Source of the DNA: Octopus vulgaris
Lineage: Eukaryota
Length of the DNA: 64,000 bases
Assembly: GCA_951406725.2 (NCBI GenBank)
Contig: OX597842.1
Location: 15,562,001-15,626,000 of the forward strand
Direction: 5' to 3'
A program made the translations under genes and the position numbers. The notes under the pieces were generated by a model. It saw nothing but the letters and a program-made list of their open reading frames with translations. It searched no databases and was not told where the DNA came from. This document shows, piece by piece, positions 30,501 to 63,073 of the stretch; position 1 is the stretch's first letter, and every line of letters starts with the position of its first letter.

Positions 30501-33500
30501 CTGTCTCTCTTATTTACTCTTGTGGATTCGAGGTCGTTGTGAATTCTTGGTAGGGAAGAAGAAGAAGAAGAAGAAGAAGAAGAAGAAGAAGAAGAAGAAG
30601 AAGAAGAAGAAGAAGAAGAAGAAGAAGAAGAAGATGAAGAAGAAGAAGAAAAATGTGGGAGTGCCATGACAGCAGTATGTTAAATGGACAACTGCCCGGT
30701 GTTGATGTTAGTAGAATGGTCAAGTGACCCACTGTGGATGGTAGTTGTAATTGTTGAATTCCTGAAACATCTCTTTTGAATGCTTCGATTATAAAATTTG
30801 TGTAGGTGTTATTCTAAACAGCAATAGTGGTAAAGTTAGGAAGGAGAAGGAGGAAGACAAAGAAGGAGAAAGTGAAGGGAGAATAAGAAAGGAATGTAGG
30901 TAGTATTAAAGTAGTAAGGTGTTAAATAGTCAAATTACTTAAAATTGGCACGTTAAGGATTATAGCAGTGATTGGGACTGTTTTTAATGAATTCGTGAGA
31001 ATCCATAGAGTGTATCATTTTTAATATTTGCATGTGTATTTGTGTTATTCTAAGGCCGTGGCGGATATATCGTTTGTTGTAGACGCGTTCAAAAGGGGTC
31101 TGTATTTTTCAATAAAGAGTGTTTCTTTACTGATTTGTTCCTTGTTGTAGCGTCCCTGAATTGGTAGAGGGGAAAAGTTCTGATTTTTGTTATTGGCGCA
31201 AATGTCTATGTGTTGGCTGAATGCAATTTTTCTGTTATGGGGAATTTTGATCTGGGATCTGTGCAGAGCCATTCTTTAACGTAGACTTTTTGTTTGGCCC
31301 ATGTATTGTTCTTGACACCCAGATCATGTTAGTACATATATCAGGTTCCCCGAAGCAAATTTGAAGTTGCTTTTCACTGTGAAACGTTGTCCCTGTTCCA
31401 AAGAGAACTCTGATCCCTCAATTAAATTGACGAATATCTCACAGTTGGGTCTTCCGCAGTTTTTCACTGACGGCTTCTGTGTTGTTGAGAGTATTCGAAC
31501 TTGTGTTAGGAGACTTTTCATAGATTTGGGTTATCTCTTGCTTTTTATGATGGTGTGTGTTTGGAGGATTAAGTTCATTCTGTCTATTTTTAGCAGGGGT
31601 ATGCATTGGAGGATGGTGTCGAAGGCTTCATTGTTGAGAGGGTTGTGTGTGGAGATCTATGGCTTTTGGTTGTAAATCATTCTTTAATTTAGGATGTCTG
31701 TGTTGCTGGATGTTGAGTTGAAGAGACTGTTGAAAGCATATGTCTATTAATTATTAATGAAGGTGGGTAGTTCCTGGTGATGAGTCTATCCTTTATTTCA
31801 TGTAGTCGTGTGTCTCCGGTGTTTGCATTAGAAACTATAGTACATACCCTTTTTGCTAGGTTGAAGAGAATATAGTATATATCTGTTATAGTATATATCT
31901 GTTTCCATTACGTTGTTAGAATTCTTGGTGAGGATATCGAGGAAGGGAAGTTGTTTCTTTGGCATGAAAATATAGAGAAACTTAAAGAATCCCAAGCACT
32001 TCTAAATGGACTTGACTTAAATATTCAATTTATGGTTGAATATAGCCAGCAACACCTTACGTCTCTCTCATTAACTGAATCCCCGACGAACACTGAGACC
32101 GAGAGCGTGTTTTAACGACAAACTACAAAGTGTATACACTATAATCTTTATCAACTACCAACTTCAACCACAATCCGATTCCTGTAAGCCATGTGTTATA
32201 GGGTAATATGTCACAAAGATGGGAAAATAACTAACACCCGATGCTATATTCAGTAGGAAAGATAATATAAGAGCACGCTTGGAGAAACTAGCAAGTTCAT
32301 AGCAGAATGCGGTGGAAGGCGTTCCTATATGATAGAAAGAATATATAAGAAGATAAACCGGCGAACATGGATGCACATTCAGTAAAATCAAGGAATATCC
32401 ACCGACCAACCAACCAACACATAACCAGGTTCATGGAGGAAATCTAAGATATATTGGGTCATTCCATAAATAATGCGGTTTTTTCAATCGAATGAACTAA
32501 AAAGTCGAAGAGTGCAGTTTGGTTTCAACAGTTATTTTTTCAAAGTTATAATGGAAGTGACGGCATATCTTGCTTTATGAGTTCAATAAAGGCAACAACG
32601 CAACGGAAAACGTGAGGAATAACAATGCATTATATGGGGATTGGACAATAAGTGTAAGCCAGTATCAACGGTGTTTCCAGAAATTCCTAGCCGGAGACTA
32701 CAGCATAGGAGACGAGCCTCATCTTTGGAGGATCTGTAGAGCTCGACGAAGCGTCCTTCAAACCCTGGGGGAAAAAAATCCCATCCTAACCAGTCAGTAA
32801 TACCTGCGCTAGACGAAAAGTGACCATCTTTGATTTCAAGACGAAAGGTGTTCTTCCATCAGGATAATGCTTAGCCAAGTACAGCAAGGATGACATTTCA
32901 AAGACTGGAACAGTTTCAATAGGAAACGATGCCCCACCCACCATATTTGCCGTCGTTGCACCATCTGATAATCATTTATTCCGTAGTCTTTGAAATTATT
33001 TGGACAGAAAAAATATGAATTCTATAAACGAGGGCAGAACAGTACTGGGGGAGTATTTTTCATAAGAGGCGGGCAAGGAAATTCCGGAAGAGGGGCCTTG
33101 CAATTCTACAAAATAGATAGAACATTGTAGAAAATGAAGGAGAGTATATTCTATATTAAAAACATTTTTCTTAGTTTTGAAAAAAAAAGGGAGTATAAAA
33201 AAGTGCATTCTTTATGGGATGACTCAATAATCAGAGCATGAAATTCAGAAAGAATCCTCCGAGACAAATGATATCATTTGATTGTAAAATGAAGTTTGGC
33301 TTGCTAATTAACTTATAGGAAGATATAATTGTTGTGATGCTATCACTTTTTATTGGTTAATTCATGAGTTCTTTTGTCTCTATTAGTCCATTTCGTTATA
33401 CCTAGTTTTATAACATTTTCATGCTGTTATATATCTATAATTATAGCCATATCGTTATATGTCACTAATTACAATAATAATTATATATAACTGATGCTAT

Positions 33501-61194: not shown

Positions 61195-63073
61195 TATTTC
61201 GACTAAAGAATTAGACTATGGAAATCATGAAGAGTTGATTACGGTTCTGTTGAAATTGATAATGACGATGATGATGATGTTCAAATGGGTGCAACTAACT
61301 GCGGTTGTCTATGGTAATGAATAAAGTTGATGATGAACCTGACAATATTGAAGGCTGAGAGAAAGAATCGTGTTGCAGAGAATAGTCTCGGTAATAATGA
61401 TGGGAACGAAGAACGTTTCGGGGACCACTACCCTGGGGTGATCATGAAGCAAGCAAGCATGCGTGTATTTGTGCACGCACGTGTGTATGTAAGCATGTGT
61501 GTATGTATGTGTGTTTCTGTATGCGTGTGTGTGTTAACTCAATAGTTGAACATGAAGAACGTCGAAGATTACATCTTCATAATTTATTTGTTGAAGAATT
61601 TTCTTCATATTACATTCATTGTTTAATCAGCCCAAGATTTCCTCAGGATGCTAAAAAGTATCTGCTCGGATTTCAAATCTCTATACCATTACGTGGGGGG
61701 GTGTATATATGTATGTATACGCATATGTATATACGAGGGGATATACTAAAGTAACCGTAAATGTTCTCTGGAAGACAAACCCGTTGTAGTTCAGGTTTCC
61801 GTCGCTAAACTCCACTTGATGCGACTGTCAGGCATCAGTCAGCCAACCGGTGTTATCCGTAGTGTTGTACTGCCGGGTAGTTCGTCTTTGTTTTGACGTG
61901 ATTCTGCTCAGTTCGTATGTTTCTTGCAATGGCTGGAACGAATGAACATTGTGCTTCTGTGAAATTCTGTTTACTGCTGCTGAAAACTGCAGATGAAACA
62001 ATTCTCATGCATCCCATCACAAGGATGATGCAATGGGCAAAGCACAAGTTTATGAATGGTTTTCACGATTTAGCAATGGTCACTTGTCGCTTGAAAACCA
62101 ACCTTATTCATGACAACCGTCGACCTCCCAAACATCATGAAAATTCTTGATCTGATCGTGGAGGACCGTCGCCGACAATTGATGAACTTGTTGACATGTC
62201 GGTTTTGTCCTGGAGCTCCTGCCAATGAATTTTGTGTGAGGAATTGTGAATGAAAAGCGTTCCAGCAAAATCCATGCCTCGTTTGCTCACGGAATGTCAA
62301 AAACAGTCATGGCTGAATGCGTGTCGTGAGCAAGAAGAACGGCTATGAGGTAATCTGAATGTTTTTTCGAAGGTCATCACTTGTGGCGAAAGCTGGTGCT
62401 ACGGAATTTGAAGATGTTGAAGTGAGGAAAGAAAACGATGGGGGCGTAAAAAAGCATCACTTCGGAATAGGTCCAACACTGATTCCAGTAGCTGAAAAGG
62501 CGCCTGGAACGATGCATTGATTAAAATGGAGAATAATTTGAACACAATAAAAGTGTAAATATGTAAAACTAAGTGAATAATATAATCTTTCGAAATTACG
62601 GTTTCTTTTGGGCAGCCCCTCGTATGTATGTACACACAAGCGGCTACGGCCAAGCTTCCCTGGGATTATTAATACCTAAAAGAGATATTATCTCATCATT
62701 TCCTGATATTTTGTGTAAACCGTTGTTTAAAAGATGCCAAGATGCGGAAACTCCTCAGTTTGTCTATAAATGTTAATTTACTGAGAATTGTAAATACACA
62801 GAACATAAGAAAATACTAAAATACAATTTACTTTTATATTTATATTTTCTGTGGTAAATATTTTTAGAACACGCTACAAATTTTCAAAATATCTTTAAAG
62901 TAATTGCTTTTCTAACAAGTAAACTTTTACAATGACTAACGTAGTGCTTGAAGTATACACTGTTCTTATTTTGCCCTTGGTTGCAGACAAGTAGTGAAGA
63001 TCTCAGATTTGATATTTAGGATGTCGGCTGGAAAGCTAAGACTTTATATATTTTATTTTACAGAATATGGCTT

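Follow-up and report, generated by a model that had tools for sequence, protein, structure and literature searches.

A 64,000-nt stretch of the Octopus vulgaris genome (the window; contig OX597842.1, C29:15562001-15626000) carries on its minus strand part of a gene related to the adhesion G protein-coupled receptors (GPCRs), in which each extracellular leucine-rich repeat (LRR) has a 72-nt exon of its own. With a probability of about 0.6, these exons can be regarded as LRR cassettes of an octopus-expanded adhesion GPCR family that have been selected for new residues on the ligand-binding face, the copy in the window having lost its seven-transmembrane (7TM) part. Four exons in the window are single-repeat cassettes of a 22-LRR gene, and ectodomains of the family would lengthen or shorten through germline duplication of exon-plus-intron blocks, most likely by unequal crossing-over and gene conversion. 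Selection would favor new residues at five codons predicted to contact the ligand, whose likely sources are fast-changing targets, such as microbes or parasites. The window's copy, devoid of transmembrane helices 2 to 7 (TM2-7), would be expressed in truncated form, cleave itself at the GPS, and act as a tethered or shed, nonsignaling LRR ectodomain. Exon skipping may provide a second layer of variety.

Array of single-repeat exons

The four exons, which start at window positions 59399, 48859, 42688, and 36736, are stop-free, are bounded by AG and GTAAGT, have phase 2-2, and encode one 24-aa LRR each. A scan of the window for AG, 72 nt, GT, and an LRR motif recovered these four plus the exons at 24464 and 23325, all on the minus strand, and none on the plus strand; the same scan of 100 shuffled sequences gave a mean of 0.04 and a maximum of 1. 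An earlier note on this DNA had described four recent ~6-kb duplicons, each with one such exon. The four exons, one per unit, have the predicted splice sites and phase, but only three of the units are ~6 kb long, while the fourth is split by a long interspersed nuclear element (LINE) and holds an older exon. The dot plot proposed in that note, performed here as a self-comparison of the window, confirmed a tandem block at ~33.3-63.1 kb, with units that are 86-95% identical. Going from 36736 to 59399, the LRR exons are spaced by 5952, 6171, and 10540 nt. Compared over 173 flanking sites, exon 59399 differs from the other exons of the block at 30-34 (17-20%), so it represents an older subtype and not a fresh copy. 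The block consists of three clean ~6-kb units and one older interrupted unit. The units are recent but not near-identical: introns of the clean three differ at 5-10% of sites. The exon accounts for ~1.2% of the duplicated unit, in line with the estimate that ~99% of it is noncoding. Over the whole gene, the introns that separate LRR exons measure 0.8 to 24 kb, so the 6-kb unit is only one among several duplication sizes. Copies of exon-flanking intron without an adjoining LRR exon were also observed, at window positions 61194-63076 and at C29:15635142-15635235 (partial blastn matches at C29:15623194 and 15635142); this suggests that exons were lost, or stretches duplicated only in part, inside the array.

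The array was expected to extend beyond the window, and it does: upstream lie 16 further LRR exons and, at C29:15726042, an exon encoding the signal peptide and LRRNT. The exons at 24464, 23325, and 16589 are present downstream and in frame, the first of them with a weak GTCAGC donor and without the LRR Asn. The complete gene spans 173 kb and encodes a signal peptide, LRRNT, 22 LRRs, LRRCT, LU, HRM, GAIN/GPS, and the first transmembrane helix (TM1), bearing out the predicted LRRCT-LU-HRM-GAIN order; the four exons of the tandem block are LRR17-20. The N-terminus is long, starting with a hydrophobic segment and running through LRRNT, the repeats, LRRCT, LU, and HRM. The 34-exon model has an open frame of 1137 aa, with AG/GT at 33 of 33 internal exons. 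All 22 LRR exons are intact and have symmetric phase 2-2, and the donor is the consensus GTAAGT in 20 of the 22. Growth by tandem duplication of single LRR exons, as originally suggested, is supported. A separate cluster with the strand orientation of the window's gene is found at C29:15933201-15963200, where an LRRNT exon (15.963 Mb) precedes at least 7 LRR exons in near-identical ~1.85-kb units. No LRRCT-exon match was listed between this cluster and the window's gene; it is possibly a fragment, or else an alternative 5' end.

The protein P0001, labelled Octopus vulgaris, is 100% identical to the GAIN exon of the window's gene. The LU (Ly6/uPAR) assignment comes from the Atlas model of the homolog P0010 (TM score of 0.73 to the UPAR_LY6 cluster); an AlphaFold model of P0010 was discarded as unreliable for LU and HRM, with pLDDT <50 for nearly all residues 1-167. 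HRM and GPS were assigned from Pfam matches on paralogs (HRM in P0009). The GAIN/GPS exons are in frame with an HL/T motif, and the Pfam GPS domain scores 54.5 bits in P0047, which has the same truncated module. Two Cys residues that are replaced in LU exon 2 would normally pair with each other in the LU pattern; their absence could reflect either decay or compensated loss of one disulfide.

Selection on the strand face

In LRR structures, positions x2, x3, x5, x7, and x8 of the LxxLxLxxNxL motif line the concave β-sheet. The five codons for these positions were compared with the remaining 18 in 60 exon pairs, chosen by intron similarity alone, with each exon used once. The fraction of nonsynonymous sites that differ (pN) was 0.279 at the five codons and 0.037 at the other 18, with the synonymous fraction (pS) at 0.077. 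For the window's gene alone (9 pairs), pN was 0.285 versus a pS of 0.066 (p=2e-5), and the 22 within-gene pairs from other genes gave an overall pN of 0.23 versus a pS of 0.11. Exons 36736 and 48859 differ at 6 bases, every one of which changes an amino acid in one of the five strand-face codons, and their flanks differ by ~1% within 200 nt of the exon and by 6% further out. This pattern suggests homogenization of the scaffold by conversion or constraint, with selection maintaining the differences at the face. When templated swapping of the 5' variable block was looked for, 8 of 95 blocks were shared across unlike backbones. In the model of the homolog P0048, the β-strand of the repeat straddles the exon junction, and its fold search matches are typical extracellular LRR solenoids. 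Judging by these substitution counts, diversifying selection is strong and confined to the five strand-face codons, which lends added support to the idea of a recognition receptor.

A mutational hot spot at the exon ends was ruled out, as pS is 0.081 at the five codons and 0.075 elsewhere. Near-exon introns were likewise rejected as a neutral clock, having been used for the choice of pairs and being partly homogenized (1.2% versus 2.7% further out), so that pS serves as the main yardstick. In the 142 LRR exons found intact in 12 genes, the residues that abound at the five variable positions are Tyr (18.5%), Ser (13.5%), Asn (12%), Thr, and Asp. This composition is familiar from the binding sites of antibodies and of the variable lymphocyte receptors (VLRs) of jawless vertebrates and is also common in LRR strands generally.

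The array could in principle be an assembly artifact produced by the tandem stacking of haplotypes or reads, and a base-calling error could lie behind the TM1 frameshift described below. A single assembly underlies the analysis, and near-identical units occur both in the window's gene and in others. Such an artifact is very improbable given that the 434 kb around the window contain no N gaps, that intron divergence among the three window units is 5-10%, that differences are concentrated in five codons, that an identical 1-nt loss occurs in three separate copies, and that many-LRR homologs are annotated in Octopus sinensis and Octopus bimaculoides.

The paralog family

Genome searches returned, as lower bounds, at least 54 matches to the GAIN exon, 60 to the LRRCT exon, 44 to the LRRNT exon, and 51 to the TM3 exon, with ~15 of the GAIN-exon matches located within C29:13.1-16.3 Mb. 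By sequence similarity, the window's gene belongs to an octopus adhesion GPCR expansion that numbers at least 54 paralogs. LRR exons were counted in 12 gene regions, a nonrandom sample picked mainly for closeness, plus one fragment. The 12 regions have 3, 5, 6, 7, 7, 8, 9, 11, 12, 22, 30, and 34 LRR exon-like matches; some of these counts are minima, as LRRNT was not located in one region and two genes have an extra weak or indel-bearing match. This range bears out the proposal that the ectodomain is expandable. Among the 154 LRR exons in these genes, 142 are intact and 12 lack a splice site. The gene with 34 LRR exons retains the full 7TM part, complete exon sets are also present in the neighbor of the window's gene and in g15.07, and the Pfam domain 7tm_2 is found in paralogs P0004, P0008, and P0063.

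Several genes share the same LRR backbone types, and the type that has been amplified differs from gene to gene. The 21 exons of the window's backbone type have 21 different strand-face combinations. No antisense LRR exons were detected in the 12 gene regions or in the 434 kb around the window. The one-repeat-exon array is a family-wide trait and not a peculiarity of the window locus. Other ectodomain modules are also tandemly repeated, with up to four LU domains (in P0067) and spacer-plus-HRM blocks (in P0009 and P0029; see also P0026). At C10:6784501-6822700, the terminal LRR exon type has been duplicated together with its neighbor, yielding the order E-D-F-D-F, unlike the other examined genes.

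All named homologs in two database searches came from Octopus. Existing gene models skip most of the LRR exons: P0001 includes 0 of 22, and P0011, from the neighboring gene, has 4 of at least 9. P0001 starts in a low-complexity intron (28847-28915, minus strand) and jumps to the HRM exon, leaving out the 22 LRR exons, LRRCT, and LU, which is likely an annotation error.

Most likely, this family corresponds to "group 3" of Ritschard et al. 2019 (PMC6408891), to which it was matched by description and through the O. bimaculoides homologs P0019, P0020, and P0029. According to the available text of that study, group 3 comprises octopus-restricted adhesion GPCRs with GPS and 7TM, arranged in tandem clusters, with LRRs in 5 of 22 sequences. 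It was found to be under branch-level positive selection, with no positively selected sites in the site test, and its expression was highest in the axial nerve cord, suckers, skin, and gills (PMC6408891). The same text reports no exon-level LRR arrays, variation in repeat number, LU domains, or truncated members.

Transcripts and exon skipping

Given the symmetric phase 2-2, the claim that any subset of the LRR exons would splice in frame is arithmetically true; for transcripts, no supporting joint was seen among those listed. The alignment to window positions 23200-43100 used contigs of X1, X2, X4, and X17, none of which is on record as RNA. A 100-nt X4 contig has a 62-nt match, with 6 differences, that ends exactly at the 36736 acceptor, as would be expected of a spliced paralog, but it is too weak to count. 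X17 contigs that jump by 5.9-6.1 kb could reflect a different number of units or cross-mapping between units and were counted neither way.

Indirect evidence of skipping, which the earlier note had also envisaged, comes from two O. sinensis paralogs, with none seen for the window's gene. For one of them, RefSeq lists five isoforms, each lacking a different 24-aa repeat compared to the longest one; the repeat skipped is near-identical to others in three cases and unique in two. The other has seven isoforms with seven arrangements of 11 distinct repeats, in register with the exons. RefSeq isoforms of such kind rest on RNA-seq alignments. They are suggestive of single-LRR skipping in the family and say nothing direct on the window's gene.

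It appears rather unlikely that combinatorial skipping, with many isoforms made from subsets of LRR exons in each gene, is the main source of diversity. The symmetric phase of every LRR exon would permit it, and both O. sinensis genes are in accord with it. On the other hand, those isoforms are predicted models, short reads could have been mis-mapped for the three skips in near-identical repeats, 20 of 22 donors in the window's gene have the consensus GTAAGT, which suggests default inclusion, and none of the joints listed for that gene shows a skip.

Loss of the signaling half

The description of the gene as adhesion GPCR-like holds with respect to its GAIN/GPS region and long N-terminus but not with respect to signaling. 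Its TM1 exon is 1 base shorter than those of intact relatives, which results in a frameshift and a stop within the helix. No TM2-7 exons were found by tblastn, blastn, and genome-wide searches in the 123 kb up to the next gene, and no micro-exon was found between GPS and TM1. Homology to the intact paralogs stops ~130 nt past the TM1 exon, at a dispersed repeat. As encoded, this copy cannot be a signaling GPCR and would represent a truncated descendant of one. Its predicted product ends in a hydrophobic stretch, which could be a membrane tether or a GPI-type signal, or could be followed by shedding after GPS cleavage.

Comparison with an intact relative revealed the same TM1 stop in two more genes of the cluster, at 14.93 and 13.46 Mb of C29. 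The former has no TM2-7 exon within 16.6 kb downstream, and the genome search listing contains no TM2-7 match near the latter. In two of the three stop-carrying genes the array is very long (22 and 30 exons). Between the window's gene and g14.81, the truncated 3' modules show 189 differences over 11574 sites (1.6%). In g14.81, three exon pairs with ~1% flank divergence each have three amino acid-changing differences on the strand face; these young pairs hint that selection continued after the truncation.

Weighing the interpretations

Several points weigh against the reading given at the outset. The pN and pS values come from plain counting, with no correction applied and each site taken as independent of the rest. 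Among the other genes, most of them full-length, the signal is weaker at short distances, the 10 closest within-gene pairs having no excess (pN of 0.11 versus pS of 0.10). The window units, with 5-10% intron divergence and 6% beyond 200 nt even in the closest pair, are older than the 1.6% module split, so selection on them may predate the truncation, and recombination can exchange one 3' module for another. The first polyadenylation-like hexamer is found 1.6 kb past the TM1 stop. Three distal GAIN/GPS exons shared with g14.81 have 7 nonsynonymous and 0 synonymous differences, a small sample in which purifying selection is not apparent. None of the 15 joints listed out of 168 connects LRR exons, in an alignment swamped by repeats. 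As for function, a neural role would be just as compatible with the expression published for nerve cord and suckers, and the putative immune role is proposed from the sequence pattern.

Alternatively, the window's copy could be a recent pseudogene, whose array diversified under a full 7TM part before a broken 3' module replaced the intact one. This scenario, although less probable than a live gene, would account for the TM1 frameshift and missing TM2-7 exons, the end of homology at a dispersed repeat, the replacement of two LU Cys residues and the Asn of LRR21, the age of the units relative to the 3' module, and the failure to observe RNA joints between LRR exons among those listed. It fits poorly with the fact that every one of the 22 LRR exons and of the 33 internal splice pairs is intact, with the spread of the truncation by copying to three genes, among them the two with 22 and 30 LRR exons, and with the very young exon pairs of g14.81, which still change at the strand face only. 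Between a truncated ectodomain and a recent pseudogene, the odds are slightly better than even for a live truncated gene.

A different explanation of the diversity invokes a wiring, touch-taste, or self-recognition code of the arms and skin, similar to protocadherins or Dscam, in place of antimicrobial recognition. We consider it rather doubtful. Wiring codes are usually more conserved, and the ongoing replacement in very young copies, gene birth and death, and the 12 broken exons out of 154 look more like an arms race. The top structural matches are often neuronal LRR adhesion proteins (NGL, LRRTM2, and LINGO1), though such matches reflect a common fold only. In the available text on the octopus group, the axial nerve cord, suckers, and skin are named as sites of enrichment and the authors suggest a role beside protocadherins, which favors a wiring code, while the enrichment in the gills of C. 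minor, mentioned in the same text, weighs against it (PMC6408891). On balance, the likeliest mechanism is germline evolution of the exon array under selection for new binding faces, with the ligand probably a fast-changing non-self one.

Comparison with known systems

The closest parallel is found in the ROCO genes of brown algae (Ectocarpus and Saccharina), in which, according to the available text of PMC3341825 and PMC11378527, one LRR is likewise encoded per 72-nt phase-2 exon, in variable number in young paralogs. As in octopus, inactivated exons are found in introns, the concave face is under diversifying selection (in octopus, by the counting method only), repeats are subject to alternative splicing (in octopus, according to RefSeq models), and an immune role has been proposed (PMC3341825 and PMC11378527). 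Unlike the octopus repeats, which belong to an animal cell-surface receptor of the LU-HRM-GAIN-7TM type, those of brown algae are part of cytoplasmic ROC-COR GTPases; besides, algal LRR exons occur on the noncoding strand of introns, whereas none was antisense in octopus. By this analogy, the octopus family works like the ROCO system but is not a member of it, and no common descent is implied.

The VLRs of jawless vertebrates are known for their hypervariable concave face. Like the octopus proteins, they form a capped LRR solenoid from interchangeable modules; as far as the available text of PMC13428168 shows, their germline gene is incomplete and is assembled somatically by conversion, in contrast to the germline gene in octopus, which is complete and can be spliced in frame. 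Being complete in the germline, the octopus gene is not a VLR. Vertebrate ADGRA1-3 (GPR123/124/125) combine LRR, HRM, GAIN, and a secretin-type 7TM in one chain, with few fixed repeats and an Ig domain. The LRR, HRM, GAIN, and 7TM parts are likewise combined in octopus, and the UniRef name of P0001 is "ADGRA2/3 GAIN domain-containing"; however, the octopus proteins have LU in place of Ig, which was absent from Pfam scans, as well as 3-34 hypervariable repeats and dozens of paralogs. Human NLRP3 and other NLRs also have frame-neutral LRR exons whose skipping alters the binding surface, but they are cytoplasmic sensors with another LRR class and few isoforms, and no germline array growth is described in the available text of PMC6642158.

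The one-LRR-per-exon layout is by itself common, judging from the available text of Hoss et al. What sets the octopus family apart is the measured selection, the tenfold range of repeat number in close paralogs, the annotated skipping isoforms, and the 7TM-less subfamily. No description of LRR exon arrays in octopus adhesion GPCRs was found in the literature, with subscription papers mostly outside the search and the supplements of PMC6408891 possibly bearing on the matter; nor was anything on an octopus LRR-adhesion GPCR family found in the available text of PMC9068888 and the SPLASH preprint.

Features of the window

Coordinates of the gene's exons and the duplicated units are listed in the table below. 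The LINE in unit 4 has two minus-strand frames separated by one stop, an endonuclease (55546-56415, 289 aa) and a reverse transcriptase (53284-55545, 753 aa). The element at 53284-56415 appears young; its reverse transcriptase frame includes a PHD-like finger, and it is bordered by 159-nt and 174-nt tandem repeats. An open frame of 187 aa on the plus strand (63080-63643) has a CCHC zinc knuckle and is probably ORF1 of another retroelement.

Table. Exons of the truncated receptor gene and duplicated units (window positions, except where C29 is given)
Feature	Position	Strand	Basis
LRR exon 17 of 22, 72 nt, phase 2-2; older subtype, nearest relative LRR14 (outside the window)	59328..59399	-	
LRR exon 18, 72 nt, phase 2-2	48788..48859	-	
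LRR exon 19, 72 nt, phase 2-2	42617..42688	-	
LRR exon 20, 72 nt, phase 2-2; 6 nt differences from exon 18	36665..36736	-	
LRR exon 21, weak donor GTCAGC, conserved LRR Asn replaced; same peptide in paralog g14.81	24393..24464	-	
LRR exon 22, terminal LRR type, last in 11 of 12 paralogs examined	23254..23325	-	
LRRCT (LRR C-terminal cap) exon, 170 nt, phase 2-1	16420..16589	-	
LU (Ly6/uPAR) domain exon 1	13395..13486	-	Fold from Atlas model of P0010
LU domain exon 2; two paralog Cys replaced	10385..10568	-	
HRM exon 1	5963..6077	-	Pfam HRM in paralog P0009
HRM exon 2 and GAIN start	2545..2714	-	
GAIN exon	1002..1233	-	
GAIN exon	329..500	-	
Three more GAIN/GPS exons and broken TM1 exon, left of the window	C29:15557771-15553446	-	
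Partial further unit	33277-34120		Self-comparison
Duplicated unit 1, ~5.9 kb, holds exon 20	34121..40056		Self-comparison
Duplicated unit 2, holds exon 19	40057..46019		Self-comparison
Duplicated unit 3, holds exon 18	46020..51555		Self-comparison
Unit 4, ~11.5 kb through insertions (LINE and other inserts), holds exon 17	51556..63076		Self-comparison
LINE (non-LTR retrotransposon), 5.6 kb, inside unit 4	~52482..58047	-	

Significance

We know of no diversified receptor family for non-self recognition in cephalopods. For molluscs as a whole, FREPs are the only such family named in the available text of a 2026 review (PMC13428168). The octopus family bears the genetic marks of non-self recognition, namely, variation in repeat number, selection on the binding face, and an attached signaling domain, and it has been hidden because current gene models omit the 72-nt exons. 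A bolder and so far tentative possibility is an anticipatory octopus repertoire of >50 GAIN-coupled receptors with up to 34 hypervariable LRR exons each, reshuffled in the germline by exon duplication and conversion, subject to exon skipping per cell, and present both as signaling 7TM receptors and as tethered or shed forms without a 7TM part; it would be the molluscan counterpart of VLRs in lampreys and Dscam in insects. The genes described here provide a concrete list of targets for studies of octopus immunity or, alternatively, of self-recognition by the arms. By analogy, the family would be an animal case of the exon-cassette design of brown algae, coupled to an adhesion GPCR.

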